Part shown: positions 1,026 through 63,810 of the stretch, in pieces
How the letters are laid out: each line of letters begins with the position of its first letter
Numbering within the stretch: position 1 is the stretch's first letter
Source of the DNA: an uncultured Acidobacteriota bacterium
GTDB taxonomy: Bacteria; Acidobacteriota; Blastocatellia; Pyrinomonadales; Pyrinomonadaceae
Length of the DNA stretch: 64,000 bases
Reading direction: 5' to 3'
NCBI GenBank assembly: GCA_963849205.1
Contig: CAWKGP010000005.1
Coordinates: 252,406-316,405, forward strand
Translations under genes and position numbers: made by a program
The notes under the pieces: model-generated
The model's database searches: none
Told to the model about the DNA's origin: nothing
The model's input: only the letters and a program-made list of their open reading frames with translations

Positions 1026-1085
1026 TTAGCCACAGATTCACACGGATAGAAAATCGGATTTTTATCCGCGTTCATCTGTGGCTAA
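1026..1085. repeat. Hairpin repeat, family E (CCACAGAT / CACGGAT / CGCAGAT units, outer ends TTAGCCAC...GTGGCTAA)
   Basis: ttagccacagattcacacggata ... tatccgcgttcatctgtggctaa is an imperfect inverted repeat directly after the RND gene stop. Confidence 0.8.
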
Positions 1086-1094
1086 AATGTCTCC

Positions 1095-1502
1095 ATGTCA
1101 AATGAACCCGAAGAGAATTCCACCGGTATCGCCACGCTCATAGTTGGCCCACAGGACCTCGCGAGCTCGATTTCAAGTGAGACAGGAGATGATTTCCCGC
1201 CCGTGCTGGCTACGGCCCGCATGGTCGCGTTGATGGAGATTGCCGCATCTCGTGTGCTCCTGCCTTTGCTTGGTCCGGGAGAGTTGTCGGTTGGCGTCAC
1301 GGTCGATATAACTCACACCGCGCCGACACCGATGGGCGCAGAAGTCACGGCGACCGCGCGTTATGCCGGTCGCGAAGGAAAGCTCTTTCTTTTTGAAGTC
1401 AGTGCCGCCGATCGCGGCGGGGAAGTTGGTCGAGGATGGCACAAGCGGGCGATTGTCTCGGTTGAACGGCTGCAAAGCGGCGCGGCAAAACGAGTTGGTT
1501 GA
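1095..1502 (+). CDS. Hotdog-fold thioesterase (FlK-like family)
   Basis: 135-aa ORF. The pattern PPVLATARMVALMEIAA...GVTVDITHTAPTPMGAEVTATA...GEVGRGWHKRAIV is typical of small hotdog thioesterases. Confidence 0.7.
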   Translation: MSNEPEENSTGIATLIVGPQDLASSISSETGDDFPPVLATARMVALMEIAASRVLLPLLGPGELSVGVTVDITHTAPTPMGAEVTATARYAGREGKLFLFEVSAADRGGEVGRGWHKRAIVSVERLQSGAAKRVG

Positions 1503-2851
1503 GGTGCCCCATGTCAGTTGCCAGACGAATGACGCGGCGTCTAAAGAAGACCTCCGCGATGGACCATGATTTATTCGAGAAGGAGTTCGCGCTCGAGAGT
1601 CTGAAGAGTGAAAGGCTGCGCGTTTCGATTCTGATTGGAGCGATCGCTAGTGCCCTCGTCTTCGTTCTGGTCCTTGCTCCGATCTTTTTAGATGACTTTC
1701 AGACTGCGTTTCATGGCAACTTTCGCGGGTTCCTTGGCGCCGTCTACCTGATCTTTGGCGCAAATCTCTGCTACCTGTTCGCCGAGCGTATTGTCCTTGG
1801 TCGTCTCATCAAGAAACAGCAGAAGCCGTTTTCGGCACTGAAGTATGTGAGTGCGTTTGTCGAAACGAGTATTCCCACTTTGGGCATGATGGTAGGTTCG
1901 ACATTTCTTGGTCCAATCTACACCTTGTTCACCCCGGCGGCCTTTATCTATCCGTTGTTTATTTCACTCTCGGCTTTGCGTTTGAATGTCAGGCTCTGCA
2001 TTTTTACCGGCGCCGTAGCCGGAGTCGAATACGCGCTACTGGCCATCTACTTTATTCAGACGACGCCGAGTGCTGGCATTGAACCGATCCTTGCTGGTGT
2101 GCCACATCACTTGTTCAAAGGTTTTCTGTTGTTCCTGACCGGTGTCGTAACCGGACTCGTTACACTGCAAATCAGAAAGCGGATCCTCAATTCGTTTTCT
2201 GTGGTGGAGGAACGAAACCGCATTTCCAGGACTTTCGGCGAGTATGTTTCACCTGAGGTGATGGGCAAGCTGATGGATCTGAAACCGGATCTCCGAAGTG
2301 AAAACAAAAATGTGTGCGTGATGTTTCTCGACATCAGAAACTTCACCGGCTTTGCAGAGAAGAGAAGTCCTGAAGAGGTCGTTGAATATCTCGAATCGTT
2401 GTTTGAGTTCATGATCGAAATCGTCAATCGCCATCACGGGATCATCAACAAGTTTCTGGGTGATGGATTCATGGCTGTGTTTGGCGCGCCCCTTTCGGAT
2501 GGCAAGGATTGTGTGAATGCGTTGAAGGCGGCTCAGGAGATTCTCGCGCGTGTGCAGCAGGAGGTTGAGGCCGGCACCATCCTGCCGACGACCGTTGGTA
2601 TTGGTCTGCATGCAGGCCAAGCCGTCACCGGCAGCATCGGTTCGGCGTTGCGACGCGAGTACACAGTGATTGGCGATGTGGTAAATCTCGCGGCAAGGAT
2701 CGAGAAGCTGAACAAACGTTTTGACTCGCAGCTCTTGATATCGGAAATCGTTTGGCAGGCAGTCGATACAGACGCTGAAAAAGCGGTGCCGATGGGCCAG
2801 GTCGAGGTGCGTGGACGAGAGCAGGCGATCCAGATTTACCAGGTAGCTTGA
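1499..2851 (+). CDS. Membrane-anchored class III adenylate/guanylate cyclase
   Basis: N-terminal polytopic hydrophobic region followed by cyclase catalytic motifs VMFLDIRNFTGFAE, FLGDGFMAVFGAP, IGLHAGQAVTGSIGS and EYTVIGDVVNLAARIE. The start could be TTG 1499 or ATG 1511. Confidence 0.9.
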   Translation: MRCPMSVARRMTRRLKKTSAMDHDLFEKEFALESLKSERLRVSILIGAIASALVFVLVLAPIFLDDFQTAFHGNFRGFLGAVYLIFGANLCYLFAERIVLGRLIKKQQKPFSALKYVSAFVETSIPTLGMMVGSTFLGPIYTLFTPAAFIYPLFISLSALRLNVRLCIFTGAVAGVEYALLAIYFIQTTPSAGIEPILAGVPHHLFKGFLLFLTGVVTGLVTLQIRKRILNSFSVVEERNRISRTFGEYVSPEVMGKLMDLKPDLRSENKNVCVMFLDIRNFTGFAEKRSPEEVVEYLESLFEFMIEIVNRHHGIINKFLGDGFMAVFGAPLSDGKDCVNALKAAQEILARVQQEVEAGTILPTTVGIGLHAGQAVTGSIGSALRREYTVIGDVVNLAARIEKLNKRFDSQLLISEIVWQAVDTDAEKAVPMGQVEVRGREQAIQIYQVA

Positions 2852-2854: not shown

Positions 2855-2972
2855 GTTTCACGCAAAGGCGCAAAGGTCACGCAAAGGCGCAAAGTATGCA
2901 AAGAAGATCGTGGATTCACTTCCGTCTTCTTTCTTTGCGCTTTTGCGTGACCTTTGCGCCTTTGCGTGAAAC
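2855..2972. repeat. Hairpin repeat, family A (GTTTCACGCAAAG ends, CGCAAAGG tandem units)
   Basis: The 40-nt left arm gtttcacgcaaaggcgcaaaggtcacgcaaaggcgcaaag (2855-2894) pairs with the right arm (2933-2972) at 39 of 40 positions. It lies between convergent genes. Confidence 0.9.
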
Positions 2973-6203: not shown

Positions 6204-6286
6204 CCACAAACGCACAAAAAGCACAAGAAAGAAAACCTAAATCAGTCTCCTCCTTTTTTGTGCTTTTTGTGCTCTTTTGTGGCTAA
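6204..6286. repeat. Hairpin repeat, family B (CACAAAAAG units, end GTGGCTAA)
   Basis: ccacaaacgcacaaaaagcacaag ... ttgtgctttttgtgctcttttgtggctaa, between the pilin-like gene stop and the BON gene start. Confidence 0.8.
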
Positions 6287-9289: not shown

Positions 9290-9297
9290 GGGAAGGA

Positions 9298-9415
9298 GTT
9301 TCACGCAAAGGCGCAAAGTAAGACGCAAAGTCGCAAAGGCTGGCGGACATTCTAATGGTTTTTCTTTGCGTCTTTGCGTCTTCACTTTGCGCCTTTGCGT
9401 GAAACGCTCTTCTAA
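9298..9415. repeat. Hairpin repeat, family A
   Basis: gtttcacgcaaaggcgcaaagtaagacgcaaagtcgcaaagg ... ctttgcgtctttgcgtcttcactttgcgcctttgcgtgaaac. Confidence 0.9.
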
Positions 9416-9424
9416 GTATCTCGC

Positions 9425-11821: not shown

Positions 11822-11831
11822 GCAAAGAATA

Positions 11832-11927
11832 TCTCCCGCAAAGGCGCCACGGCGCAACGAATGAATCAGCTGCTCTGACGTAACTCCTTCGTTGCGCCGT
11901 GGCGCCGTTGCGGGAGAAATCCTATCA
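11832..11927. repeat. Hairpin repeat related to family A (CGCAAAGGCGCC units)
   Basis: tctcccgcaaaggcgccacggcgcaacgaa ... ttcgttgcgccgtggcgccgttgcgggaga. It lies between convergent genes and overlaps the last codons of hemY. Confidence 0.85.
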
Positions 11928-13299: not shown

Positions 13300-14287
<988 letters not shown>

Positions 14288-14291
<4 letters not shown>

Positions 14292-15325
14292 CCGTGTAAT
14301 CCGTGTACCATTTCAACCAACGCGATCACATTCTCCACCGGTGTCTCAGGTAATATTCCATGCCCCAGATTGAAAATATGCCCCGCACGACCACCCGCCT
14401 GATCCAGAATTCGCTTCGCCTGTTCGCGTAGAACATCCTGCTTCGCAAACAAAGCGATTGGATCGAGATTCCCCATTACGGCAACGTCGTGACCAACGCG
14501 CTGCCATGCTTCATCGAGTCGCACACGCCAATCGAGTCCAATCACATCGCCACCGGCTTCGCGCATCAGCTCCAACAGCGCGGCCGTTCCCGTACCGAAG
14601 TGAATTACCGGAACGCCCTTTTTCACGTTTCGGATTACGCTTTGAGTATGCGGTAGTACAAACTCGCCATAATCGTCCGGGCTCAAACATCCCACCCACG
14701 AGTCAAACAATTGCACTGCCTGCGCGCCCGCTGCGATCTGTGCGTTGAGATATTTCACTAGCGCTCTCGAGATCAACGACATCATCGCGTGCCAGGCGCC
14801 GGGGTCGTCGTACATTAAACGCTTCGTGTGTACGTAATTCTTCGACCCGCCACCTTCCGTCATATATGACGCGAGCGTGAATGGCGCACCACAGAAACCA
14901 ATCAACGGAATATCCGGCTTGAGCGCCCCACGCGTTTTCCTAATTGCCTCATAAACAAATTCAAGCGCGTTCGCATCCTCCAGTTCCCGCAACCCCTCAA
15001 CATCCGACGGCTTACGCACGGGATTGTGAATCACCGGCCCCTCACCCGCCGCAAACTCCAGTTGGATCCCCAGTGGTTCGAGTATCAACAAAATGTCGGC
15101 AAAAATGATCGCCGCATCAACACCCAACCGCTCAACCGCCGTCACCGTCACCTCCGCCGCGAGCTCCGGATTCTTACAAAGCTCCAAAAACGTCGTCCTC
15201 GCGCGCACCTCTCGATACTCGCGCATATACCTTCCCGCCTGCCTCATCAACCAGATCGGCGTATACGGCACCGCCTCCCCCCGGCATGCCCGCATGAATG
15301 GACTGTTTTCGAGTGATTGAGTCAA
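14288..15325 (-). CDS. hemE: Uroporphyrinogen decarboxylase
   Basis: FMRACRGEAVPYTPIWLMRQAGRYMREY is the canonical HemE N-terminus. A TTG at 15325 gives a normal-length protein of about 345 aa. The listed ORF start at 15478 adds a non-homologous extension. Confidence 0.9.
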
Positions 15326-20861: not shown

Positions 20862-21971
20862 TTGACAAAGAAGTTGTTCGTAGTCTGTGCAGTAGTCGCC
20901 CTCATACTCTCTCTGGCAGGTTCCACCCTAGCTCACGACGAGAAATCAGATACAAAACCGGGCGAAAAGGTGGAGCGCTCGCTCGTTGTAGACGCCGGGG
21001 CTACGGTCACTCTATGTGTTGCCTCCGGAACACTTCAGGTGCGTGGATGGGAAAAGAGTGAGATACGCGTTCGTTCCCTCGACGCCACGCAGATCGACTT
21101 TCGACGCATCGACAAAATCAAAGATAAGCCGCCCAGTCGAATCGACGTTGTGGTGCTCAATAAAAGTACCGGCGTCCGTCCGAAGTTTGATTGCCAGGCC
21201 ATTGCCGACGTAGAGATGGAAGTTCCTGCGGGCGCAACCGTCCAGGTGCAGACTCGTGACGGTGATATCGTCATCGCGGGTGTGGCAGGCGCTTATGCGG
21301 GATCTCAAAACGGCGACATCGCGATCGAGCGTGCGACTAAACTCGTCGAAGCAGGCAGTGTTGGCGGCAGTATTGTATTGAAGGACTCGACTGGTCGAAT
21401 AAATTTGAGCTCGGCGGGTGGGGGCGTTGAGGCCAGTAACATTCGCGCCGCGAGCGAGGATGACACTTTCGACGTGGGCACCGTGAGTGGTGACATTCAA
21501 CTGGATCGCGTCAGTAATCCCAAAGTAACAGCAAAGACTGTTAACGGAACCATGATTATGACCGGGCCTCTGGCTAAATCAGGCTGGTACGGGTTTACCA
21601 ACATGACGGGAAACATCATTTTGGCAATGCCACACGATGCGTCATTCCAGTTGAATGCTAAAGTTTCTGACAGGCACCACATTGTTTCTGAGTTCAATTT
21701 GAAGTATCTGAGTGATGCGACTCCGCCACCGCCACCCACCGTAATCAGGCCGAGGACTCCTGAAGCCAAAGGCAAGACTCCCGAAATCAAGGGAAAGACG
21801 CCCACTCCGCAGCCAATGCCAAAAGGGGGGCCCATAATCGCGCCGATCGTGGTTCAGAAGCCAACGCCGGCGCCTTACGTGCTCCGGCGTGTCAGTGCGG
21901 TCTGTGGATCCGGAGACGCCACGATATCCATCGCCTCTTTCGGCGGCACAGTCCGCCTCAAGAAAATTTAG
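20862..21971 (+). CDS. DUF4097-like beta-strand repeat protein (putative adhesin), secreted, Pro-rich C-terminal region
   Basis: Signal peptide, repeated GDI-x-I/L strand motifs (RDGDIVIAGV, QNGDIAIERA, VSGDIQLDRV, MTGNIILAM), and PPPPPTVIRPRTPEAKGKTPEIKGKTP. Confidence 0.65.
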   Translation: MTKKLFVVCAVVALILSLAGSTLAHDEKSDTKPGEKVERSLVVDAGATVTLCVASGTLQVRGWEKSEIRVRSLDATQIDFRRIDKIKDKPPSRIDVVVLNKSTGVRPKFDCQAIADVEMEVPAGATVQVQTRDGDIVIAGVAGAYAGSQNGDIAIERATKLVEAGSVGGSIVLKDSTGRINLSSAGGGVEASNIRAASEDDTFDVGTVSGDIQLDRVSNPKVTAKTVNGTMIMTGPLAKSGWYGFTNMTGNIILAMPHDASFQLNAKVSDRHHIVSEFNLKYLSDATPPPPPTVIRPRTPEAKGKTPEIKGKTPTPQPMPKGGPIIAPIVVQKPTPAPYVLRRVSAVCGSGDATISIASFGGTVRLKKI

Positions 21972-22042
21972 CCACAAAAAGGCACAAAAACACAAAATCA
22001 GAAATGCCCATTTTTGTGCTTTTTGTGCCTTTTTGTGGCCAA
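21968..22042. repeat. Hairpin repeat, family B
   Basis: ttagccacaaaaaggcacaaaaacacaaaa ... ttttgtgctttttgtgcctttttgtggccaa. Confidence 0.9.
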
Positions 22043-22171
22043 ATTATTTATGTCACAACGTGGCCAGGGTCGGTGTTCTGACTATAGAGCAACGCAGAAG
22101 GGCCGGGGGTGGTTGGAACTAGTAATTCAGAACTGATTGCTCTCGGTCCTAAAAAAAGAGGTCTTAGGGAA

Positions 22172-24673: not shown

Positions 24674-24773
24674 TTTCTCTGTGCAACCTCTGTGTTCTCT
24701 GTGTCTCTGTGGTTGATTGTTGTAAGAGGCTTTAACCACAGAGACACAGAGAACACAGAGTTGCACAGAGAAA
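24674..24773. repeat. Hairpin repeat, family D (CTCTGTG / CACAGAG units)
   Basis: tttctctgtgcaacctctgtgttctctgtgtctctgtggtt ... aaccacagagacacagagaacacagagttgcacagagaaa. The pairing is near perfect, with one bulge. Confidence 0.9.
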
Positions 24774-27503: not shown

Positions 27504-27573
27504 TTAGACAAGATTTACAAGATTAGACAAGATTCACAAGTTCATCCTGAAACATCTTGTAAATCCTGTCTAA
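27504..27573. repeat. Hairpin repeat, family C
   Basis: ttagacaagatttacaagattagacaagattcacaag ... cttgtaaatcctgtctaa. Confidence 0.85.
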
Positions 27574-30101: not shown

Positions 30102-30179
30102 GTTTCACGCAAAGACGCAAAGGTAGCAAAGAAGAGCGCCTTTGCGTCTCTTACCCCACTTTGCGCCTTTGCGTGAAAC
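30102..30179. repeat. Hairpin repeat, family A (more degenerate copy)
   Basis: gtttcacgcaaagacgcaaagg ... ctttgcgcctttgcgtgaaac. Confidence 0.8.
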
Positions 30180-34778: not shown

Positions 34779-34839
34779 TAACCGCGGATTTTCGCGGATG
34801 AACGCAGATGTGCGTTTATCCGCGTAAATCCGCGGCTTA
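34779..34839. repeat. Hairpin repeat, family E (CGCGGAT / CGCAGAT units)
   Basis: taaccgcggattttcgcggatgaacgcaga tg tgcgtttatccgcgtaaatccgcggctta. It lies between convergent genes and overlaps the aldolase stop codon. Confidence 0.85.
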
Positions 34840-37080: not shown

Positions 37081-37680
37081 TTACGGTTTGTGTGACGCAG
37101 CTTTCGCAGACTTATCTGTGTAATCTGTGGTTACGATTTCGGCGCCGGCCTCGCGCATTTCTTCAATCGCGCGTTCGCCGTCGCCGGGTTGCACATCGAC
37201 TGCTCGCATTGCGTTCGTTAACGCTTTCACTCTGAATCCATTCTTGATCGCATCGAGCACGGTTGACTTGACGCAGTAGTCAGTGGCAAGTCCACCGACG
37301 ACGACCTCTTCGACGTTTTGTTGTCGAAGTTGGGCCAGGAGGTCCGTCTCGTCGAACGCAGAGTAACAGTCTGTGTCGCCCAGGCCTTTTGAAATCACGG
37401 TGATGCGCGGATCGTTGCGCAGGGCAGGATGAAACTCCGCGCCTTTTGTGTTTTGCACGCAGTGTACGGGCCAAACGCCGCCGTACGCTTTGAAATGTTT
37501 CGTTGTTGGCGGATGCCAGTCGCGACTCTTGTAGACAGGTTCGCCGCGCTCAAGAAACTCGTCGATGACGTGATTCAAAGGCTCGACAACTTCATCGCCG
37601 TGAGGCACCGCGAGTGTGCCGCCGGGACAGAAATCGTTCTGGACGTCAACAACGATCAGGGCTCGCTTTGGAGTGGTCAT
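37081..37680 (-). CDS. pncA: Nicotinamidase/pyrazinamidase (isochorismatase family)
   Basis: MTTPKRALIVVDVQNDFCPGGTLAV, WPVHCVQNT and VVVGGLATDYCV (catalytic Cys). Confidence 0.88.
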   Translation of the reverse strand: MTTPKRALIVVDVQNDFCPGGTLAVPHGDEVVEPLNHVIDEFLERGEPVYKSRDWHPPTTKHFKAYGGVWPVHCVQNTKGAEFHPALRNDPRITVISKGLGDTDCYSAFDETDLLAQLRQQNVEEVVVGGLATDYCVKSTVLDAIKNGFRVKALTNAMRAVDVQPGDGERAIEEMREAGAEIVTTDYTDKSAKAASHKP

Positions 37681-37713: not shown

Positions 37714-39312
37714 ATGAATTCTATTGATCTCGCCAAACGCATCTGGCAGAAAGATGCGTCGTTGTGGAAGTCTGACGACGATAGCGTCAAAAACATCAAG
37801 AACTCGCTGGGTTGGTTAACTGTCGCTGACGAAATGATCGGCGTCGTTGACGATCTCGACGCCTTTGCCAAATCGGTTCGCGATCGCGGTTTTCAACACG
37901 TGATGGTTTGCGGCATGGGTGGTTCATCTCTCTGTCCGGAAGTGCTCGCAAGAACATTCGGTCGACAACCTGGATTCCCGGAGCTGCTCGTACTTGATTC
38001 GACCGATCCGGACGTTATCGCTGCGTTCATGGAACGGATTGACGTCGAGCGTTGTCTTTTCGTTATTGCTTCAAAATCCGGTAGCACGACTGAGCCGAAC
38101 GTTTTCTACAAATTCTGGTACGAAGAGGTCAGCAAACGTAGAGATAACCCGGGCGACAACTTCGTCGCGATTACCGATCCGGGTTCGCCATTGATTGGTA
38201 CCGCACAAGAACTCAAATTTTATCGCACGTTTCTTAACCAGGCTGACATCGGTGGACGCTATTCAGCACTCTCTTACTTCGGCATGGTCCCTGCAGCATT
38301 GATGGGGCTTGACGTTCGCGACCTTCTCGACGCCGCGCGTCTCGCCGCAAAGGCAGTTATTCCCGCCGTGGAATTAGGAACAGCGATTGGCGATTACGCG
38401 AATGAAGGACGCGACAAACTCACGCTCGTAATCGATCAAAAACTCGAGACACTCGGTTTGTGGATTGAACAACTGATCGCCGAGAGCACCGGAAAGGAAG
38501 GTAAGGGAATTCTTCCGGTGAATGGCGAGCCGCTCGGCACTCCGGACGTTTACGGTAACGACCGTGTTTTTGTTTCGATCTCGCTGGGTGCGGTTTCTGA
38601 AGACACACAGGCAAAACTCGACGCGCTTCGAGCCGCCGGGCATCCGGTCATCAATCGTAAACTTGATGACGTCTACGATCTCGGAGCGGAATTCTTTGCG
38701 TGGGAGTTTGCGACCGCATGTGCTGGCTGGCGCCTCGGGATCAATCCATTCGATCAACCAAATGTACAGGAAGCGAAAGACGCAACGAAGGAATTGCTGA
38801 GTTCATTTGTGCGGCGTGGTCACCTTGATGAGCGGAATAAGATTGCCGCGGATGATCTGATGACGATCTATGGTGCTGACGATGCAGCGGAAGCTGAGTC
38901 TGTTTCCGAAGTCCTGCGACGGCATCTTGCCGGTGTAAAGCCTGGTGATTACATCGCCTTCCTGAACTACATCGAAGAGACTGATGAAGTCGATCGAGAG
39001 TTTCAGAATCTTCGTGTGCAACTGCGCAATAAGACCAACTGCGCGGTAACGATCGGGTATGGTCCACGTTTTCTGCACTCGACCGGACAACTTCATAAAG
39101 GTGGTCCTGATACCGGTGTGTTCTTTCAGATCATCGCTAACGACCAGGTAGACTTCGCAATTCCAGGCGAGCCTTACACCTTCACGATTCTGAAACAAGC
39201 CCAAGCCCTCGGTGACTTCCGCGCGCTTGTGAAACGCGGCCGCCGCGTCATAGGTCTGGACCTCGGAAACAACACGCCAGGAGGGTTACAGCGGCTTCGG
39301 AACGTACTGTAG
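37714..39312 (+). CDS. pgi: Glucose-6-phosphate isomerase
   Basis: ATG 37714 (MNSIDLAKRIWQKDASLWK). Motifs VCGMGGSSLCPEV, FVIASKSGSTTEP and DIGGRYSALS. The listed ORF start at 37429 would overlap pncA. Confidence 0.88.
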   Translation: MNSIDLAKRIWQKDASLWKSDDDSVKNIKNSLGWLTVADEMIGVVDDLDAFAKSVRDRGFQHVMVCGMGGSSLCPEVLARTFGRQPGFPELLVLDSTDPDVIAAFMERIDVERCLFVIASKSGSTTEPNVFYKFWYEEVSKRRDNPGDNFVAITDPGSPLIGTAQELKFYRTFLNQADIGGRYSALSYFGMVPAALMGLDVRDLLDAARLAAKAVIPAVELGTAIGDYANEGRDKLTLVIDQKLETLGLWIEQLIAESTGKEGKGILPVNGEPLGTPDVYGNDRVFVSISLGAVSEDTQAKLDALRAAGHPVINRKLDDVYDLGAEFFAWEFATACAGWRLGINPFDQPNVQEAKDATKELLSSFVRRGHLDERNKIAADDLMTIYGADDAAEAESVSEVLRRHLAGVKPGDYIAFLNYIEETDEVDREFQNLRVQLRNKTNCAVTIGYGPRFLHSTGQLHKGGPDTGVFFQIIANDQVDFAIPGEPYTFTILKQAQALGDFRALVKRGRRVIGLDLGNNTPGGLQRLRNVL

Positions 39313-39388
39313 GGGCGGCCCTCCGTGGCCGCCCCTGCGCGGGAATTCAACACAGGACGGCCACGCAGGGCCGGCCCCTACAGTACGT
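39302..39388. repeat. GC-rich inverted repeat (REP-like) with nested local hairpin
   Basis: acgtactgtaggggcggccctccgtggccg ... cggccacgcagggccggcccctacagtacgt. The left arm contains the perfect stem ggggcggcc/ggccgcccc and overlaps the pgi stop codon. Confidence 0.85.
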
Positions 39389-39613
39389 CCCCTGACCTTA
39401 CATCATACTGACCGCGTTGAAGTCGTACGGTTTGTGCCCTTACCGCACAGATGTCGTACGGCGCTGGAAATCTCCTGTTAATAGTTGTTTGTTGATTTCA
39501 AAGGACATCCCCCACGAGACAATCGCTCTAAGTTCAGGCATACGAGTTGCCGATTTGGAAGTGCTTACTCGCTTCCATGGAACCTGCCAATATGGAGGAG
39601 GACCGTCGCCGTG

Positions 39614-43839: not shown

Positions 43840-45363
43840 ATGCGAGACGATTCACAGGCAACAACATCCATTTGGATGGCGACGGCAAACACGCCATCTC
43901 AATCACCATTAAAGGAAAGCATCCGCACCGATATCTGCATTATCGGTGCGGGGATTGCCGGGTTGACGACGGCTTTCCTGCTGGGAAGAGAAGGACGTTC
44001 AGTCGTTGTGCTGGACGATGGAGGGATTGGCGGTGGTATGACTGGTCGCACCACCGCCCATCTAACTAATGCTTTTGACGATCGGTACGTGGAGATGGAG
44101 AGGCTGCATGGTGCAGAAGCGTCGCGCTTAACAGCCGAAAGTCACACGGCAGCGATCGATAAGATCGCTGAGATCGTTTCTTCAGAGAAGATCGATTGTG
44201 GTTTCGAGTGGGTTGATGGATTTTTATTCGGAGCAACACCCGACGAAGTTGAGTTGCTCAACGACGAGCTGGCTGCGGCGCATCGTGCGGGGCTGACTGA
44301 AGTTGAGAAAGTCACCCGCGCACCGATCGAATCTTTCGACACGGGCGTAGCGTTGCGTTTTCCGCGCCAGGCGCAGTTTCATCCGCTCGAGTATCTCAAC
44401 GGTCTCACACGTGCGTTCGTGCGTGATGGTGGCCGTATTTTTGGACAAACACATGCGACGAAGATCGAAGGCGGAACCGAGGCTCGCATTGAAACCAGCC
44501 ATGGTCCGGTTGTGACCAGCGAAGTTGTCGTTGTGGCCACGAATACGCCTGTAAACGATCTGGTTGCGATTCACACGAAGCAGGCACCTTACGTCACCTA
44601 CGCGATCGGCGTGAGAGTTCCAAAAGGCTCTGTGACGCGCGCGCTTTACTGGGACTCCGGAGATCCGTATCACTACGTGCGACTTCAATCTGAGAATTCT
44701 TCAGACGTTCTCATCGTCGGCGGTGAAGATCACAAGACCGGACAAGCCAACGATGGCGATGAGCGATTCGCGAAGCTCGAGCAATGGACGCGTGAACGTT
44801 TCCCGCAAATGATCGAAGTTGAATATCGCTGGTCAGGACAAGTCATGGAACCGGTCGACGGTCTCGCCTTCATCGGGCGAAATCCGCTCGACGACGACAA
44901 CGTTTACATTGCGACGGGTGATTCCGGACAAGGCATGACTCACGGCACTATCGCCGGAATGTTACTGACTGATTTGATTCAGGGACGCGAGAACAAGTGG
45001 GAAGATCTTTACAATCCTTCACGAATCCGGCTGAAGTCGCTTCCTGAATATGCGTCGGAGAATATCAACGTTGCTGGACAGTATGCTGATTACGTCACGG
45101 CGGGTGATATCAAATCGGAAGCAGAGTTGAAACCAGGCGAGGGAGCGATCATGCGCGAAGGCGTTTCGAAGATCGCCGTATACCGTGACGAAGCCGGCAC
45201 AATACACAAACTCTCAGCGGCGTGCCCGCACCTTGGCTGCGTCGTGGCTTGGAACTCAACCGAGCAAACCTGGGATTGTCCTTGCCACGGTTCGCGGTTC
45301 GGCGCGAACGGCCACGTTTATCAGGGACCCGCTAATAGTAATTTGGCTGAAGTTGAAGAATAA
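43840..45363 (+). CDS. FAD-dependent oxidoreductase fused to a C-terminal Rieske [2Fe-2S] domain
   Basis: DICIIGAGIAGLTTAFLL (dinucleotide fold) and the Rieske box CPHLGCVVAWNSTEQTWDCPCHGSRF. Confidence 0.88.
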   Translation: MRDDSQATTSIWMATANTPSQSPLKESIRTDICIIGAGIAGLTTAFLLGREGRSVVVLDDGGIGGGMTGRTTAHLTNAFDDRYVEMERLHGAEASRLTAESHTAAIDKIAEIVSSEKIDCGFEWVDGFLFGATPDEVELLNDELAAAHRAGLTEVEKVTRAPIESFDTGVALRFPRQAQFHPLEYLNGLTRAFVRDGGRIFGQTHATKIEGGTEARIETSHGPVVTSEVVVVATNTPVNDLVAIHTKQAPYVTYAIGVRVPKGSVTRALYWDSGDPYHYVRLQSENSSDVLIVGGEDHKTGQANDGDERFAKLEQWTRERFPQMIEVEYRWSGQVMEPVDGLAFIGRNPLDDDNVYIATGDSGQGMTHGTIAGMLLTDLIQGRENKWEDLYNPSRIRLKSLPEYASENINVAGQYADYVTAGDIKSEAELKPGEGAIMREGVSKIAVYRDEAGTIHKLSAACPHLGCVVAWNSTEQTWDCPCHGSRFGANGHVYQGPANSNLAEVEE

Positions 45364-45423
45364 TCCGTTCATCCGTGTTACCTGTAGTTAGAAAGCCACA
45401 GATAACACGGATTTTTTGCGGAT
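45364..45423. repeat. Hairpin repeat, family E
   Basis: atccgtgttacctgtag ... ccacagataacacggat, with flanking ccgttcatccgtg / cacggattttttgcggatt. It lies between convergent genes. Confidence 0.75.
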
Positions 45424-45569
45424 TAAACAGCTCGACGACCACTTACGAGGTTGATTACCAGAACCACCACTGCAACGACGAGCAGCAGGTGGATGAGACC
45501 TCCACCGACGTTTGACAGCAATCCAATCAGCCACAAGACCAACAGAATCACTAGAATTGTCCACAGCAT
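45423..45569 (-). CDS. Unlisted 48-aa lmo0937-family small membrane protein
   Basis: GAAGGAG lies upstream of ATG 45569. Product: MLWTILVILLVLWLIGLLSNVGGGLIHLLLVVAVVVLVINLVSGRRAV, which matches the widespread MLWTI...GGLIH...GRR family pattern. Confidence 0.7.
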   Translation of the reverse strand: MLWTILVILLVLWLIGLLSNVGGGLIHLLLVVAVVVLVINLVSGRRAV

Positions 45570-46670: not shown

Positions 46671-46686
46671 TCCACAGATTACGCAG

Positions 46687-47022
46687 ATGTTTTTGATTGA
46701 CGACTTATTACTGGCGCCCGTCAACGGGTTCAAGTTCATTCTTGGTCAGATCCAGAAGATGGCCGATCAGGAACTGAACGACGATACTGTCATCAAGGAA
46801 CAGTTACTCGAACTGCAGATGCGTTACGAGTTGGAGGAGATCTCCGACGAAGAATTCAAGGAGCGCGAAGCAGAGTTGTTCGCGCGCTTGCGAGTGATCA
46901 AGATGCGGCAACTTGATCTGATGCACGAAGCGACGGCGCACACGGCCGACTCTTCGAGTTTCGTCATCGAAGTCGGCGGCGACGACCAGGGCGGGTTTGA
47001 CGAACCGCGCGACAAAGGTTGA
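46687..47022 (+). CDS. gvpG: Gas vesicle protein G
   Basis: MFLIDDLLLAPVNGFKFILGQIQKMADQEL...LLELQMRYELEEISDEEFKEREAELFARL. Confidence 0.8.
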   Translation: MFLIDDLLLAPVNGFKFILGQIQKMADQELNDDTVIKEQLLELQMRYELEEISDEEFKEREAELFARLRVIKMRQLDLMHEATAHTADSSSFVIEVGGDDQGGFDEPRDKG

Positions 47023-48974
47023 AAGCGCGTTATCTTTTCTTTGGCGGCAAGGGTGGCGTCGGCAAGACGACTGCCGCGTCTGCAACAGCTCTCTTTCTCC
47101 TCAATCAGCTCAAGCGAACCGAATCCATTCTCCTGTTCTCGACTGATCCCGCGCACTCTCTTTCTGACAGTCTCGACGTCAAAATCGGTAATCGACTGGT
47201 CGAGGTAAAACAACTTCGTGGTGCGCGACTGTTTGCTTACGAGATGGACGCGAGTCTTGCGCTCGAGAGGTTTCGTGCCGCGCATGGCAAGGTGCTGGCC
47301 GAGATTGCAGAGCGAGGAACCTTGCTCGACGAGGAAGACATAAACGAGTTGTTGAGTCTTTCTCTCCCCGGACTCGATGAAGTGATGTCGCTTTTCGAAT
47401 TGAGCGAGTTGGATCGCGAGGGAAAGTACGCTCATATCGTCGTAGATACTGCGCCGTCTGGTCACACGACGCGCTTGCTGCGTTTACCGGAAGTTTTCGA
47501 TCGTGCAGTGAGAGCGATGGATCTGATGGGTGAGAAGCATCGTTACATGGTCGCCCACTTTGCGCGGCGCCGTGTGGTTGCCGATGAGGTCGATATCTTT
47601 CTGCGCGATCTGAGTAAGAGAATCGAAGGCGTGCGCACATTGCTTCACGATCGAGAGCAGACGAGTTTTACGCTTGTATCGATTCCGGAGGCGATGAGTG
47701 TTCTTGAAACGCAGAGATATTTTGAGCTTCTTACTGAGCAGGGTGTGCCGGTCACGGATTTGATCGTCAATCGCGTCGAGCAGGAGCATGACGGTTGTGC
47801 GTACTGTCATGCGCGCGTCAGGACCCAGCGACCATGGATTAAGCAAATTGCCTCGACGTTTCACGATCTGAAAATTCATTATCTTCCGTTGCAGTCGAAG
47901 GAAGTGCGCGGTATTGACGATTTGAAAAAAATCGGCAAGCTGATTTGGACAGACGAATTTGGGCCACAGATGACACGGATAAAAAATCCGGATTTAAAAT
48001 CCGTGTCATCCGTGCCCCAGTCTTCCTTCAGCTTGGACGCGCGTAAGATAGTGCTTTTTGGTGGGAAGGGAGGTGTTGGCAAGACGACTGCTGCGGCTGC
48101 ATACGCGATCGCGTTGGCTCGCAAAAATCCTGAACAGAAGTTACTGGTATTCTCAACCGATCCGGCCCACTCGCTGTCAGACAGTTTTGACGAAGGAAGT
48201 CTGCCGAATCTCGATGTAATGGAGATCGATCCGGGAAAGTGGTTTGAGGAGTTGAAGGAGCGCTACAGATCCTGGACTGATGAGTTGTTTGCGTCGTTAT
48301 CAGGTGGATCGCGGATGGAGATCAAGTTTGATCGCGAAGCGATGCGTGAGCTTGTGGAACTCACGCCGCCGGGTATTGATGAGATTGCGGCGCTCGGGAC
48401 GATCAGCGATCTGCTGGATCTCGAACGTTACCAGACGCTCATTCTTGATACTGCGCCCACAGGCCACCTGGTACGGTTTCTGGAGTTGCCGCAGGTTGCG
48501 CTTTCCTGGATCAGGACGTTCATCAAGTTGCTGTTAAAGTACAAGGACGTAATGCGCGCCGATCAGGTGGCTGAAGAGCTGGTGGCATTATCGAAGAGTA
48601 TAAAGAAAGTGATTGCGTTGTTGACTGACCCGGAGCGTTGCGAGTTTGTGGGTGTCGCGATTCCTGAGCGGATGAGTCTGGAAGAGACTGCGGATCTGGC
48701 GAAGTCACTTGAAAAGCTGAATGTGCCGTTGAAGAGACTATTAATTAACGGCCTCGTTCCCGAGAATGATTGTAAGTTTTGCGGGTCGAGACGAAAAATG
48801 CAAAACGAAGTCGTTGCGGAGTTTCAGAAAAAGTTTCGGCGGCGATCGGTGGAGATCTTTGTGGCCCCGCAGCAACCGCAAGAGATCAGAGGCGCAAAAG
48901 CTTTGCTAGAGCATTTTCAGGCCTGGGAGAAGGTTTCACGCAAAGACGCAAAGGCAGCGAAGGCGCAAAGGTAA
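47019..48974 (+). CDS. Tandem (pseudo-dimeric) Get3/TRC40/ArsA-family P-loop ATPase embedded in the gvp cluster
   Basis: Two complete halves. Each has GGKGGVGKTTAA, STDPAHSLSDS and DTAP(S/T)GH, plus one CxxC (CAYC in half 1, CKFC in half 2). TTG 47019 overlaps the gvpG stop by 4 nt. Confidence 0.9.
   Translation: MKARYLFFGGKGGVGKTTAASATALFLLNQLKRTESILLFSTDPAHSLSDSLDVKIGNRLVEVKQLRGARLFAYEMDASLALERFRAAHGKVLAEIAERGTLLDEEDINELLSLSLPGLDEVMSLFELSELDREGKYAHIVVDTAPSGHTTRLLRLPEVFDRAVRAMDLMGEKHRYMVAHFARRRVVADEVDIFLRDLSKRIEGVRTLLHDREQTSFTLVSIPEAMSVLETQRYFELLTEQGVPVTDLIVNRVEQEHDGCAYCHARVRTQRPWIKQIASTFHDLKIHYLPLQSKEVRGIDDLKKIGKLIWTDEFGPQMTRIKNPDLKSVSSVPQSSFSLDARKIVLFGGKGGVGKTTAAAAYAIALARKNPEQKLLVFSTDPAHSLSDSFDEGSLPNLDVMEIDPGKWFEELKERYRSWTDELFASLSGGSRMEIKFDREAMRELVELTPPGIDEIAALGTISDLLDLERYQTLILDTAPTGHLVRFLELPQVALSWIRTFIKLLLKYKDVMRADQVAEELVALSKSIKKVIALLTDPERCEFVGVAIPERMSLEETADLAKSLEKLNVPLKRLLINGLVPENDCKFCGSRRKMQNEVVAEFQKKFRRRSVEIFVAPQQPQEIRGAKALLEHFQAWEKVSRKDAKAAKAQR
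47964..48016. repeat. Family-E hairpin repeat located in frame inside the Get3-like ORF (inter-half linker)
   Basis: ccacagatgacacggataaaaaatccggatttaaaatccgtgtcatccgtg aligns along its length with the intergenic copy at 1026-1085. It is translated as GPQMTRIKNPDLKSVSSVP. Confidence 0.85.
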
Positions 48975-49011
48975 GCGATTAACTTTGCTCCCTTTGCGTC
49001 TTTGCGTGAAA
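48933..49011. repeat. Hairpin repeat, family A, inside the gvp cluster
   Basis: gtttcacgcaaagacgcaaaggcagcgaaggcgcaaagg ... ctttgctccctttgcgtctttgcgtgaaa. It encodes the last 13 codons of the ATPase (VSRKDAKAAKAQR) and ends 15 nt before the next start. Confidence 0.9.
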
Positions 49012-49025: not shown

Positions 49026-49838
49026 ATGAACGAGCATATCTACTACGTCTATTGTATCGCCGAGAGCGCGGCCGTTGCGCAACTACCTGCCGATTCACTT
49101 CCGGCCGCTATCGAGGAGGACGCAAAGCTCGAATGGATCTCGGTTAATACGCTTGCGGCGCTCACTAGCCGCGTTCCCGAGAGCAGTTACAGCGAAGAAC
49201 AACTATCCGAGCATCTGACCGACGCCACCTGGACCGCTATTCGCGCAATGCGTCATGAGACCGTAGTCGAGCACGTCGCCAAACGCGTGACTGCCATTCC
49301 TTTGCGTTTCGGAACGATTTATCTGGAACGTGAAGGTATCGAACAAATGCTCACCGAGAAGGGCCGCGAGCTCGAATTGATCATCGAGCAGTTGCGTGGA
49401 CGTGAAGAGTGGGGCGTCAACGTTTACTCCGATCGCGCGGTGTTGCTATCGAGCATCACGTCGGTTAGTCCTGTCCTGCGCGAGATGGTCGAACGTGCTG
49501 AGAAGGCGTCGCCAGGTCAGTCGTATCTCATGCAGAAGAAGATCGATGCGTTGAAGGTTGATGAAGCACGCGCGGCTGTCAATCGCATCGTCGATCAGAT
49601 TGAAGAGAAGCTCAAAGAGCAAAGCGACGACGGTCTGCGTTTGCGAATTCTAAAAGTTGAAACCACCGAACACGGTGAGCTGAAAGCAAAGTTTGCCTTT
49701 CTCGTGAAGCGATCGGGCTTTGAAGAGTTTCGTGACGCAGCGGAGCGTCTCGCGCAGGAGCATCAAGCCGCTGGGATACGTTTGGAGCTAACTGGCCCCT
49801 GGCCGGTATACAACTTCGTGACAGGATTCACAGGATGA
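49026..49838 (+). CDS. Gas vesicle protein, GvpF/GvpL family (copy 2)
   Basis: MNEHIYYVYCIAES, AIPLRFGTIY, and C-terminal LTGPWPVYNF. ATG 49026 is preferred over the listed 49002, which lies inside the hairpin. Confidence 0.85.
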   Translation: MNEHIYYVYCIAESAAVAQLPADSLPAAIEEDAKLEWISVNTLAALTSRVPESSYSEEQLSEHLTDATWTAIRAMRHETVVEHVAKRVTAIPLRFGTIYLEREGIEQMLTEKGRELELIIEQLRGREEWGVNVYSDRAVLLSSITSVSPVLREMVERAEKASPGQSYLMQKKIDALKVDEARAAVNRIVDQIEEKLKEQSDDGLRLRILKVETTEHGELKAKFAFLVKRSGFEEFRDAAERLAQEHQAAGIRLELTGPWPVYNFVTGFTG

Positions 49839-51995: not shown

Positions 51996-52080
51996 ATTGC
52001 CGATTGCCGATTTCCAATTGCCGATTTTCTGAGCTGACAGCCGCTTATAAATCGGCAATTGGAAATTGGCAATCGGCAAT
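51996..52080. repeat. Hairpin repeat, family F (ATTGCCG units)
   Basis: attgccgattgccgatttccaattgccgattt ... aaatcggcaattggaaattggcaatcggcaat, with one mismatch. It starts 5 nt after the gvpA stop. Confidence 0.9.
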
Positions 52081-52095
52081 CATAAACAAAGGGCT

Positions 52096-55950: not shown

Positions 55951-55969
55951 ATACCGCTCTGTATTACAG

Positions 55970-56610: not shown

Positions 56611-58317
<1,707 letters not shown>

Positions 58318-58689: not shown

Positions 58690-58713
58690 GAGTTCAGATT
58701 AGTGATTTAGAGG

Positions 58714-58747
58714 AGGCCGGATCCATCGGGTCCGGCCTTGTTGTTTG
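58714..58747 (+). terminator. Intrinsic terminator after trxA
   Basis: aggccgga-tccatcggg-tccggcct followed by tgttgtttgt. Confidence 0.55.
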
Positions 58748-58880
58748 TCAGATGGCTTAGCCCAAACATCAAAATCCCGCCCACGGCAGTGGGCGGGATT
58801 TGTGCAAGGCTGCATTGACGGCCGATCCCTCCTAGTTGCCACGGAGCTAAATTCTTTCAATTCAACCCGCGAGCGAGTAA

Positions 58881-60214: not shown

Positions 60215-60299
60215 CAGTTAGTTTTTACAGGATTTACAAGATTTTTCAGGATGAACATGTAAATCATGTCTAATCTTGTAAATCCTGTAAAAAACTGAC
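60215..60299. repeat. Hairpin repeat, family C
   Basis: cagttagtttttacaggatttacaagattt ... atcttgtaaatcctgtaaaaaactgac. Confidence 0.85.
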
Positions 60300-63300: not shown

Positions 63301-63744
63301 GCTGTGCGCCTTCAGCGTGCAGCAAGTGGTGCGACAGCGGCAGCTAATCAACTCAGGCCACGTCTCGCAGCGATCAAGCGCGCCATCTCTGAAACGCCTT
63401 CACTGCCACAAAAATTGCAGGAAGACGCAACGGCATTGGATCGACGAACAACTGAAATCCTGCGTGCCTTGAGTGGTGACAGCGCCGCGCGACAGCGAAA
63501 CATTAACACGCCGCCCTCGATCAACGATCGCATCGGCTACGTTGTGGGCGCGCAACGAATGTCCATCTCGCGTCCCACGCAAACGCAGATCGCTCAGTAC
63601 AACGCTGCTGCCCAGGACTTCGAAACTGTGCTCAGCCAGTTGCGCCAATTGATCGAAACAGATCTCGCGCGCCTCGAGAAACAACTCGAAGCCGCCGGCG
63701 CCCCATGGACACCAGGCCGCATTCCGGAGTGGCGAAACCAGTAA
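60388..63744 (+). CDS. Secreted BNR/Asp-box repeat, sortilin(VPS10)/GH74-like double-propeller protein
   Basis: Signal peptide and a Pro/Ser/Thr-rich linker, followed by many Asp-box motifs (YKSEDGGRSWRN, FKTTDGGKTWKN, YKSTDAGATWNK, FRSGDRGGSWER, YRSDDRGDTWQV, TEDGGKNWRK, KTTDAGRTWTS, SVDGGQKWVQ). Confidence 0.85.
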   Translation: MKLSSCALTVISLFVLLPLHVVAQEPPRPPASPSPTPAASPSPTPTPEASPTPRDPMSTPTFNGLRMRSIGPAFTSGRISGFAVDPANPARYYVAVASGGVWKTVNAGITWTPIFDNEGSYSIGAIALDPKNPLTVWVGTGENNSQRSVSYGNGLYKSEDGGRSWRNVGLRTSEHIGRIALDPKDSNIVYVASQGPLWGPGGERGLFKTTDGGKTWKNILNISENTGVTDVVIDPNDPNTIYCASYQRRRHMWTLINGGPESAIYKSTDAGATWNKLRAGLPTVELGRVGLAISPVDSNVIYATVEAADRRGGIFRSGDRGGSWERRNEFDTTAMYYSRIVADPKDVDRIYVMNVFLMVSDDGGRTLRRLGEKNKHVDNHDIWIDPSNTDHYLVGCDGGIYESYDRGQNWDFKQNLPIPQFYDITTDNAKPFYNIYGGTQDNFSFGGPSRTRSASGIVNSDWFVTNGGDGFRSQVDPEDPNTIYATLQHGVIVRFDKRTGERIGIQPQPGRDEDPPRWNWDTPFIISPHLRTRLYIASDKLYRSDDRGDTWQVISGQLSRALDRDKLPVMGKVWGIDAVAKNASTAFFGNASALAESQKKDGLIYVGTDDGLLQITEDGGKNWRKIEKFPGVADMPYVSRIITSNHDANTAYVAFENHQNNDFKPYLLKTTDAGRTWTSLSSNLPKNGPVWAIAEDHVNPNLLFTGTEFGLYFSVDGGQKWVQLKGGLPTIQVRDLNIQKRENDLVVATFGRGIYILDNYAPLRLIKPEMLRQDAAVFPVKDALMYIQSQPLGGRGKSFQGERYYTADNPPFGATVTWYLKEALKTKKEKRQEAEREADRKGAPVGWPTRAELRAEEEEEAPAIIVTITDSSDNVVRRLTGPVSGGVQRLTWDLRYPAANLSAPPPPDADPDFEPPSGPLVMPGTYKAVVAKRVDGVFTQLGPPQQFQITVEGQENMSSADHAALVEFQTKAVRLQRAASGATAAANQLRPRLAAIKRAISETPSLPQKLQEDATALDRRTTEILRALSGDSAARQRNINTPPSINDRIGYVVGAQRMSISRPTQTQIAQYNAAAQDFETVLSQLRQLIETDLARLEKQLEAAGAPWTPGRIPEWRNQ

Positions 63745-63750
63745 GAATTG

Positions 63751-63810
63751 TAGCCGCGGATTGACGCGGATAAACGCAGATCTGCGTTCATCTGCGTTCA
63801 TCCGCGGCTA
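63751..63810. repeat. Hairpin repeat, family E
   Basis: tagccgcggattgacgcggataaacgcagatctgcgttcatctgcgttcatccgcggcta. Confidence 0.9.

Follow-up and report, generated by a model that had tools for sequence, protein, structure and literature searches.

Dispersed hairpin repeats built from short tandem words near gene 3' ends in the Pyrinomonadaceae

Correia/nemis elements of Neisseria and ERIC/IRU (enterobacterial repetitive intergenic consensus/intergenic repeat unit) sequences of enterobacteria are palindromic repeats of 60-150 nt of the MITE type (miniature inverted-repeat transposable element), which carry terminal inverted repeats and lie next to genes. Correia elements duplicate the dinucleotide TA, and both Correia/nemis and ERIC elements are co-transcribed, and the long RNA hairpins they form serve as RNase III substrates or stabilise mRNA. 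Rickettsia palindromic elements (RPE) are tolerated in frame inside protein-coding genes. Here, we describe hairpins with arms of tandem 7-nt words, which we catalogued across a 64,000-nt stretch of DNA (the window in the following) from a soil member of the Pyrinomonadaceae (Acidobacteriota, Blastocatellia), and compare them with these and other known systems.

Repetitive extragenic palindromes (REPs), the hairpins formed by their doublets (REPINs) and the associated RAYT transposases are described in PMC3116915 and PMC3733652, the latter of which also notes intragenic units and head-to-head dimers of REPs and mentions RPE. The nearest published architecture is that of the inverted GGGAATC array pairs of Xanthomonas. 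These convergent heptamer-array pairs are capable of forming stem-loops, occur at 70-75 loci per genome, lie between open reading frames (ORFs) that are aligned, less than 50 bp from a stop codon, are rare between divergent ORFs, vary in unit number between species and have been read as G-quadruplex repeats (Rehm et al. 2015, PMC4692102). The heptamer repeats of Nostoc/Anabaena are of the STRR type (short tandemly repeated repetitive sequences; PMC4692102).

The elements described here resemble the Xanthomonas and Nostoc repeats in that they consist of tandem heptamers, often in convergent pairs, near stop codons between aligned ORFs. However, their words (CGCAAAG, CACAAAA, CRCRGAT, ACARGAT, CTCTGYG and ATTGCCG) are free of GGG tracts and do not form the G-quadruplex pattern (GGGNATC repeated at least four times), and in place of the single G-rich word of Xanthomonas there are at least six word families in one genome (lettered A to F; Table 1), with variable spacers and defined non-word termini. 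To the REP/REPIN elements of Proteobacteria (SMAG, GTAG/CGTC-tagged), they correspond in genomic behaviour, not in anatomy. Both are small, multi-copy extragenic palindromes with several families per genome, mostly paired head-to-head into long hairpins, whose remnants are singlets. They lie past gene ends, between convergent genes and occasionally within genes, and both combine vertical persistence with turnover at orthologous sites. By contrast, a half element is here an array of 7-nt words and not a short palindrome, it lacks a GTAG/CGTC tag, and a true GTAG-tagged REP doublet co-exists in the window (39299-39391), from which the other elements are clearly distinct. The predominantly TA-flanked copies of families E, B and C are reminiscent of Correia elements, but arms made of word arrays, a far larger number of families and a TA duplication that cannot be demonstrated set them apart from Correia and ERIC elements. 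Finally, in-frame copies recall RPE and differ from them in sequence, word-array structure and lineage. In the literature, we found no description of such elements in Acidobacteria and, in the library searched, no full text with any of six diagnostic strings.

We consider it probable, at roughly 0.6, that these elements represent several families of small palindromic repeats (~55-120 nt) that are dispersed, non-autonomous, of the REP/REPIN/MITE kind and native to the Pyrinomonadaceae, rather than locally evolved terminators. In the following, we describe their build, their distribution and turnover, and weigh this reading against its alternatives.

Families, ends and arms of the repeats

The RpoD protein encoded in the window is 92-98% identical to that of many metagenome-assembled genomes labelled Pyrinomonadaceae, including one complete 7.5-Mb chromosome. 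From the RpoD scan we took 80 syntenic loci of different species with 72-85% nucleotide identity (L001-L080), and from a metagenome scan with the protein encoded at 9425-11821 a further 80 (L081-L160); together with the window, these 160 loci form the 2.1 Mb of our census.

Of the 18 long and very stable hairpins in the window, 17 have tandem-unit arms and one is the REP doublet mentioned above; there are also at least six unpaired solo arrays. This amounts to ~1 element per 3-4 kb and to much of the window's intergenic DNA. An ungapped hairpin finder (arms of at least 16 nt, at least 78% complementary, loop up to 90 nt) returned 17 hairpins in the window and 0-2 in each of 10 composition-preserving Markov shuffles, with about one expected by chance. 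All 18 full elements fold, with free energies (dG) of -23 to -87 kcal/mol and z-scores of -5 to -16 against dinucleotide shuffles. The initial annotation of the window, made from its letters alone, had counted 16 full and four half elements. All of its sites were recovered in an inverted-repeat search (arms of 20-40 nt, 83-100% complementary; periods of 7-10 nt in Tandem Repeats Finder), including the pairing of 2855-2894 with 2933-2972 at 39 of 40 positions (98%), but its own list sums to 18 full elements and three halves, none of which folds as RNA, and lacks the three solo arrays at 14277-14307, 37111-37132 and 49821-49838. The inverted repeat at 39302, which it had taken as the sixteenth element, is present but belongs to the GTAG-tagged class, and the element at 45364, which it had assigned to family E, has its arms in reverse order. 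At gathering thresholds, Rfam yielded no matches to the elements; at E <= 1, only sub-threshold miRNA-precursor models appeared, which reflect a generic long hairpin and not a family. Arrays of the CRISPR kind were dismissed, as there is no regular repeat-spacer structure.

Word families based on CGCAAAG, CACAAAAAG, CRCRGAT, ACARGAT, CTCTGYG, ATTGCCG and others recur across the 160 related loci. Hairpins whose arms measure at least 20 nt number 221 in the 2.1 Mb, and 129 of all hairpins found are of the tandem-unit type, with ~13 word types. In a word-array census run independently of arm complementarity, we counted 101 array pairs in the order X-loop-X' and none in the reversed order, and all 129 hairpins agree with this; polarity is therefore fixed within each family, with 45362-45424 as the sole reverse-polarity case in the window. 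The census also returned many solo arrays, most of which are orthologous copies of a few sites; shuffled sequence gave ~1 array per 0.9 Mb.

The outer ends of the elements, analysed with mini-hairpins anchored on the first and last word, are equally characteristic: (T)TTCA-CGCAAAG...CTTTGCG-TGAAA in family A, TTAGCCAC...GTGGCTAA in families E and B, and TTAGACAGG...CCTGTCTAA in family C. Pairing extends 5-6 nt beyond the terminal words and then stops at a sharp boundary, and the outer stems covary. In family A, for instance, 23 copies have A-U, seven C-G and one G-C as the pair before CGC, and the fourth pair out is U-A in 16 copies and C-G in nine. The corresponding covariation scores are 0.226 in family A (0.118 in shuffles) and 0.213 in family E (0.144 in shuffles), values reached by 0 of 500 shuffles in either case. 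Moreover, family C has a full-length consensus of ~72 nt with an asymmetric centre (TTTTAGACAGGATTTACAAGATTTAGACAGGATTTACATGTTCATCCTGAAAAATCTTGTAAATCCTGTCTAA), which is common to non-orthologous copies in several species and occurs in both orientations downstream of plus-strand genes of the window (27504 vs 60219), and in family E the centre AATCCGGATT is conserved. Copies of family A have termini and words in common, while their loops are unrelated; in a comparison of loops, the 10-mers in common were mostly derived from words, and a genuinely shared centre was found in family C only. Given the conserved termini, the fixed polarity and the whole-element consensus of families C and E, these are dispersed repeat families and not independently arisen stems. 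The proposal that the stems were generated de novo from unrelated sequences is contradicted by these same properties, which extend to non-orthologous copies. The underlying view of several families with one architecture, as opposed to a single REP family, was borne out; to call their sequences unrelated goes too far, as the words of E and C, of A and B, and of D differ by just 1-2 bases.

An arm consists of 2-4 conserved 7-nt words (cores CGCAAAG, CACAAAA, CRCRGAT and ACARGAT), separated by spacers of 1-4 nt, which are variable in both length and sequence. Identity between adjacent spacers is rare (5/31 in family E, 0/16 in B, 1/17 in C, 0/18 in D, 22/100 in A); since they differ, the arrays are not fresh microsatellites or products of recent slippage. 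Mismatches between the two arms of a copy concentrate in the spacers, with 29% in spacers and 3.6% in cores of family E (P = 9e-10) and 14% and 2% in family A, a contrast that is partly circular because the cores were defined by regular expression. With mismatches placed in this way, the arms are better described as arrays of conserved words than as exact mirror images. The variable positions within words (CAC vs CGC) nevertheless covary between arms, so that the earlier notion of an inner arm mirrored in its partner holds insofar as the arms of one copy covary, and fails insofar as mismatched spacers preclude a simple mirror copy. Arms are indeed more alike within a copy than between copies, in a comparison biased by the selection of hairpins. 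The juxtaposition of conserved words and variable spacers suggests that the words may be recognized by some sequence-specific factor. Two resemblances to known binding sites were considered and dropped: words of families E and C resemble the CsrA site ACARGGAUG, but ~40% of the E words read CRCAGAT without GGA and the other families lack GGA, and a resemblance to the DnaA box (TTATCCACA) is limited to occasional copies.

Gene ends, reading frames and turnover

The ~55 ORFs of the window that were annotated with Pfam are ordinary chromosomal genes, such as those for efflux pumps, haem synthesis, a gas-vesicle cluster, MreB, two-component kinases, and an Rrf2 regulator with the RpoD gene after it. 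A curated gene map has 48 junctions, and elements are found at 17 of 40 co-directional and three of four convergent junctions and at none of the four divergent ones. The absence of all 20 from divergent spacers has a P of ~0.01-0.02 given element-free spacer lengths, and in 15 of the 17 co-directional spacers the upstream stop is nearer to the element than the next start is (binomial P ~0.001), with the element typically 0-13 nt from the stop. The association with gene 3' ends is thus real, and the confinement to spacers between co-directional or convergent genes was noted correctly. However, 'nearly every gene 3' end', as first stated, becomes 20 of 44 3'-end junctions, or 20 of the ~25 that are longer than 33 nt, and some copies are not simply located past a stop: the element at 47960-48019 is in frame within an ORF, and those at 48933, 11832, 21968, 45364 and 46671 as well as the solo arrays at 14277, 37111 and 49821 overlap ORF ends. 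Stop-codon proximity can be explained without any function, because ancestral spacers measure 0-40 nt and their promoter-, ribosome-binding-site- and start-proximal side is intolerant of insertion.

Several copies have become part of proteins. The E-type hairpin at 47960-48019 forms a stop-free 20-codon in-frame linker between the two ArsA-like halves of ORF 47019-48974. At the orthologous linker, an in-frame, stop-free E-type element is found in four other species (five including the window), whereas two species carry a GTAG REP (GTAGGGGCGGCC..GGCCGCCCC) as a single in-frame copy (L001, ~356-426; L002, ~1102-1166) and two more a third kind of palindrome, likewise in frame; three species that lack an element have a stop codon here, which divides the gene into two. 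Other GTAG REP types (GTAGGACAGACTTTCCAGTCTGTCC) occur in more distant loci. Further downstream, the ArsA-like ORF owes its last 14 codons and its stop to the 5' arm and loop of the A-type element at 48933, while L009, which has no element there, shows an ATGA stop/start overlap with the next gene. Solo arrays, in turn, encode the C-termini of uroporphyrinogen decarboxylase, an isochorismatase-family protein and GvpL/F. The gas-vesicle cluster at 45852-51991, which holds four of the repeat elements, comprises three gvpL/F genes, gvpG, gvpK, three gvpA/J-type genes and the two-domain ArsA-like ATPase; its gvpA-like ORF 49835-50053 encodes 72 aa, which is below the 120-aa limit of the ORF list.

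Orthologous spacers, which the initial annotation had proposed to compare, show the elements present, absent, halved or replaced by another family. In the spacer orthologous to 48933, eight species have an A-type element, with paired differences at the termini, L012 has a B-type element, and five species have none (33-42 nt). The spacer orthologous to 60215 is highly variable. The window and L006 have a C-type element here, five species the 3' half and two the 5' half of an E element, and L041 a GGTCTTTG family; L014 has a D-type hairpin enclosed in another MITE, L009 and L032 each contain a large unrelated palindrome, and some relatives have no element. The spacer orthologous to 63751 holds a full element in five species, a half in six and just 2-4 nt in four, and those orthologous to 9298 and 11832 show similar turnover across the 80 metagenome loci. 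Even L009 and L068, which are 87-90% identical, have different families directly after the same TAA. Close relatives differ by whole words in solo arrays and by symmetric central gain or loss in hairpins (e.g. 1-word vs 2-3-word arms between identical termini), and elements are present where relatives have 2-4-nt spacers or overlapping stop and start codons. In one A-type element (L121, 12340-12518), the 3' arm has 4-5 perfect copies of a 19-nt super-unit (CTTTGCGCCTTTGCGTAAC) and the 5' arm 1-2, which is a one-sided slippage expansion caught before any mirroring.

Judged from their sequences, the families show common descent, defined ends and gain, loss and replacement at orthologous sites. 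These comparisons also show that the copies occupy insertion-tolerant sites, mostly the first few nucleotides past a stop, but also the last codons of genes and an inter-domain linker.

Other repeats share some of these spacers. Composite palindromic elements of ~270-360 nt with nested small hairpins (AACGCCGAAGGCGTT, CCCAGGGTTG..CAACCCTGGG) are located in L009 (13484-13779), L032 (3356-3719), L060 (1150-1424) and L068 (~13480-13700), in spacers that hold tandem-unit hairpins in other species. In the spacer orthologous to 9290-9424, a solo B-type array (CCACAAAAAGGCACAAAAAGCACA) directly abuts the downstream ATG in more than 15 species (L081-L089, L094, L102, L103, L108, L133, L134, L139, L140); this array is perhaps not a decayed half but a CA/A-rich translation leader.

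Outside the related loci, exact-pattern scans of IMG/VR gave mostly chance matches. Still, 16 contigs with 49-68% GC carry complete E- or A-type elements with the same termini (e.g. TCTCACGCAAAG...CTTTGCGTGAGA and TTAACCGCGGATTACGCGGAT...); one of the contigs has four E-type copies, and two have A pairs in reverse order. Viral or proviral contigs with complete elements include L269, L237, L286, L263, L199, L306, L363, L389, L395 and L397. In PLSDB plasmids, BLAST found no match to E-type or A-type elements, to which its low-complexity filter possibly contributed.

Proposed mobility of the repeats and competing explanations

Measured against described element classes, the repeats combine traits of several. 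As in MITEs, terminal inverted repeats are shared, with outer stems that are conserved or covarying and end at a sharp boundary; a full-length consensus exists for families C and E, not for family A. As in REPINs, inverted doublets form long hairpins and occur beside singlets (101 pairs and many solo arrays in the census; the doublets of the window fold). The short GTAG/CGTC-tagged palindrome of REPs, on the other hand, is not found in the termini (T)TTCAC, TTAGCCAC and TTAGACAGG, and in the window it is restricted to 39299-39391.

If the elements are dispersed repeats of this kind, their copies would spread by transposition-like copying, for which the TA-flanked ends of E, B and C are compatible with an IS630-type, albeit unproven, mechanism. 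After insertion, they would change by whole-word slippage and by symmetric central insertions and deletions, their arm complementarity may be kept by hairpin-templated correction and/or selection, and decay would leave solo arrays. Since the elements would be co-transcribed with the upstream gene, very stable RNA hairpins are to be expected, which could block 3' exonucleases or serve as RNase III sites in the manner of REP, ERIC and Correia elements, rather than as canonical intrinsic terminators.

A number of observations weigh against this interpretation. No transposase domain, including RAYT, was found by Pfam in the ~55 ORFs of the window, and no autonomous insertion sequence with the same terminal repeats was seen in the window or the inspected loci, where the search was not systematic. 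Among close relatives, there is no clean case of a filled and an empty site with a target duplication for tandem-unit hairpins: family A copies have none, and the TA that flanks most E, B and C copies is itself palindromic and continues the inverted repeat, so that it is uninformative on target duplication. Because the loops of family A are unrelated, there is also no sign of recent whole-element copying in this family. Furthermore, independent random insertion can hardly account for the repeated presence of three element classes at one very specific linker site, conserved words next to variable spacers hint at something other than a standard MITE or REP, and a role as RNA 3' hairpins is purely inferred. 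Taken together, linker-site reuse and the words beside variable spacers hint that sequence- or structure-specific recognition may be involved. One family C copy (L097) has a 9-nt direct repeat.

A clean insertion is seen for a different element. Relative to L019 (13531), L014 contains 169 additional bp (4259-4427) with a 9-bp direct repeat (GATCGTCTC) and terminal inverted repeats (T/G)GCTTTGCCCTAAAAGTC (GGCTTTGCC..AAAAGTC), whose core is a D-type tandem-unit hairpin. These terminal repeats also occur, with other contents, in L126, L091 and L060, and this insertion is a separate MITE family.

The first alternative is that the word arrays constitute a previously unrecognised cis-element, set mostly as inverted pairs just past stop codons and read by dedicated sequence-specific factors. 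The reader could be a word- or structure-specific mobilising enzyme, or a factor in termination, processing or translation termination. We regard this broader view as rather unlikely.

In a narrower version, for which we see somewhat less chance still, the 7-nt words would be sites for one or more sequence-specific DNA- or RNA-binding factors, such as a transposase, a nucleoid- or gyrase-type protein, a heptad binder of the ribbon-helix-helix type or an RNA-binding factor; the arrays, paired or solo, would be cis-regulatory platforms and the hairpin secondary. The concentration of arm mismatches in spacers, and cores that stay conserved while adjacent spacers vary and are rarely identical, would be expected of such sites, apart from the partial circularity that comes with cores defined by regular expression. 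Solo arrays conserved across species, such as the ATG-abutting B array in more than 15 loci, and the recurrence of the same words and termini in the IMG/VR contigs of 49-68% GC point in the same direction. However, since there are at least 13 different words, whose periods are 7-11 nt, many readers or a very tolerant one would be needed, there is no candidate protein, and the words partly overlap coding sequence without evident constraint.

It is similarly unlikely that the hairpins are the lineage's terminators or attenuators, without U-tracts and perhaps in need of a factor, which were selected in place and resemble each other through convergent use of expandable words. Like intrinsic (Rho-independent) terminators, they are stable stem-loops shortly past stop codons, with an extreme stem stability; they start 0-21 nt past the stop in 16 of 17 co-directional spacers and are missing from divergent ones, and the element at 55927 has a stop codon on one side and a perfectly conserved TTGACA-17-TATAAT promoter on the other. 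Canonical sites with a hairpin and T-run show no excess in the first 20 kb (31 vs 23 +/- 5.5) and are absent from gene ends there. Yet the stems measure 20-50 bp instead of 5-15 bp and belong to sequence families, in which unlinked copies share termini, polarity and a whole-element consensus. As the initial annotation had stated, U-tracts are lacking (only two of 21 sense-strand tails have at least five T in 8 nt). Copies inside ORFs and operons and the two orientations of family C argue against a dedicated terminator role, in particular the in-frame copy kept in five species and copies between genes that overlap or are 2-4 nt apart in relatives, where a new promoter would find no space. Solo arrays that do not fold are roughly as frequent as full elements, and many relatives have nothing at the same gene ends. 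Finally, G·U mismatches number 13 on the sense and 19 on the antisense strand; these small numbers of low power show no sense-strand excess and hence give no support for RNA-level selection of the stems.

Least of all do we expect the elements to be functionless by-products of non-B DNA mutagenesis, that is, slippage arrays made palindromic by template switching independently at each site: whole-word changes in unit number, symmetric central indels and the one-arm expansion in L121 would fit, and quasipalindrome correction by template switching is an established mutational mechanism, but a polarity of 101 to 0, conserved non-word termini, a consensus common to unlinked sites and different species, and differing adjacent spacers, which exclude recent slippage, make this very improbable.

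Features of the window and implications

The elements of the window are listed in Table 1.

Table 1. Repeat elements of the 64,000-nt window with their genomic context and predicted folding (dG in kcal/mol; z against dinucleotide shuffles).
Element	Position	Strand	Context	dG	z
Family E hairpin, TTAGCCACAGAT...ATCTGTGGCTAA	1024..1087		Fills 71-nt spacer between AcrB-type gene and thioesterase gene	-33.3	-10.8
Family A hairpin, GTTTCACGCAAAG...CTTTGCGTGAAAC	2855..2972		Convergent spacer; 39/40 arm positions paired	-87.2	-15.7
Family C element, ACAGGATTT words, asymmetric centre GTTCATCCTGAAA	5580..5662		3 nt past stop of minus-strand BON-domain gene		-8.2
Family B hairpin, CACAAAAAG words	6205..6283		Downstream of minus-strand N_methyl-motif (prepilin-type) gene		-5.6
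Family A hairpin	9298..9405		Co-directional spacer between DUF58 gene and MFS/spermidine-synthase-like gene	-69.5	-13.7
GC-rich family A2 hairpin, TCTCCCGCAAAGGCGCCACGGCGCAACG	11826..11923		Convergent spacer; 3' arm overlaps last ~17 codons of minus-strand amine-oxidase ORF		-9.7
Solo family E array, CACGGATTACACGGATGA on minus strand	14277..14307	-	Last residues and TGA of uroporphyrinogen decarboxylase; junction with ferrochelatase gene		
Family B hairpin	21965..22045		TAG of TTAGCCAC terminus is stop codon of ORF 20862-21971		-8.5
Family D hairpin, CTCTGTG words in 5' arm	24675..24772		4 nt past stop codon	-74.9	-13.7
Family C element	27504..27573		Fits ~72-nt full-length consensus		
Family A hairpin	30102..30179				-7.9
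Family E hairpin, CGCGGAT words	34782..34835		Fills convergent spacer	-43.8	-9.3
Solo family E array	37111..37132	-	Within the part of isochorismatase-family gene 37081-37695 (minus strand) that codes for the C-terminal tail		
GTAG-tagged REP inverted doublet, GTAGGGGCGGCC..GGCCGCCCC, REPIN-like, separate class	39299..39391		After PGI-like gene		-8.9
E-type arrays in reverse order (ATCCGTG-type, then CACGGAT-type)	45362..45424		Overlaps TAA stop		-7.0
Solo E array, CCACAGATTACGCAGAT	46671..46690	+	Overlaps TAA stop of gvpL/F gene; no fold		
Family E hairpin	47960..48019		Inside ORF 47019-48974, in-frame linker of two ArsA-like halves		-6.5
Family A hairpin	48933..49011		5' arm and loop encode end of ArsA-like ORF		-8.9
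Solo C/E-like array, ACAGGATTCACAGGATGA	49821..49838	+	C-terminus and TGA of gvpL/F gene; ATG of gvpA-like ORF 49835-50053		
Family F hairpin, ATTGCCG words, period 7	51996..52081		4 nt past stop of gas-vesicle protein gene	-59.5	-13.1
Solo E 3'-type array, ATCCGTGTTCATCCGTGGCTAA	55927..55950	+	4 nt past stop codon; conserved promoter downstream		
Solo B 3'-type array, GTGCTTTTTGTGCCTCTTGTGGCTAA	58881..58908	+	Just 5' of flavoprotein gene start		
Family C element	60219..60296		Fits full-length consensus, orientation opposite to 27504		-8.4
Family E hairpin, CGCGGAT/CGCAGAT words	63751..63810		Between stop codon and ribosome-binding site (AGGAGA) of next gene	-43.8	-8.9

The promoter next to the solo array at 55927 (55965-56005) is a perfect TTGACA-17-TATAAT within TTGACAAAATCGCAATTGTAACTATAATGGTTACAAAA, located upstream of the Rrf2 gene (56040-56588) and rpoD (56611-58317). 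It is almost invariant in ~35 species, in an otherwise variable spacer, and an inverted repeat TTGTAAC...GTTACAA overlaps its -10 box; this repeat looks operator-like and is perhaps a site for the Rrf2 regulator. Three spacers of 217-286 nt, one of them convergent (19105-19390, 40691-40964 and 43623-43839), contain neither a repeat element nor an annotated feature, and sub-threshold Rfam matches at 58688-58802 (BTnc231-like) and 42243-42301 (CsrC-like) are probably due to chance.

Two further features deserve mention. At 15441-19104, a TIR/NB-ARC ORF is followed by the gene for an 890-aa WD40 protein, in which a 126-nt (42-aa) repeat occurs in 12.6 tandem copies at 80% identity; this pair is STAND/NLR-like and possibly of a defence type. 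On the minus strand at 2979-5554, an AMP-binding/PP-binding/acyltransferase protein is split over two ORFs with a 4-nt overlap, one covering positions 8-195 and the other 214-384 of the AMP-binding profile, a split for which a frameshift, a pseudogene or an error in sequencing could account.

In soil, Acidobacteriota rank among the most abundant bacteria, and their expression signals and mobile DNA are almost unstudied. The elements described here turn over rapidly between species and reshape gene ends, as they supply new C-terminal tails, stop codons and a domain linker, and separate genes that overlap in relatives. In practice, they will disturb 3'-end gene calling, may break short-read assemblies and are potential lineage markers. 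Should dedicated readers of the words exist, the Acidobacteriota families would form a new system and not merely another REP or MITE, and the recurrence of their words in IMG/VR contigs (49-68% GC) would suggest a wide distribution of this system. If the elements are signals for transcript ends or processing, they would define operon punctuation in this phylum; if they are mobile, they would constitute a new and unusually diverse set of miniature elements.

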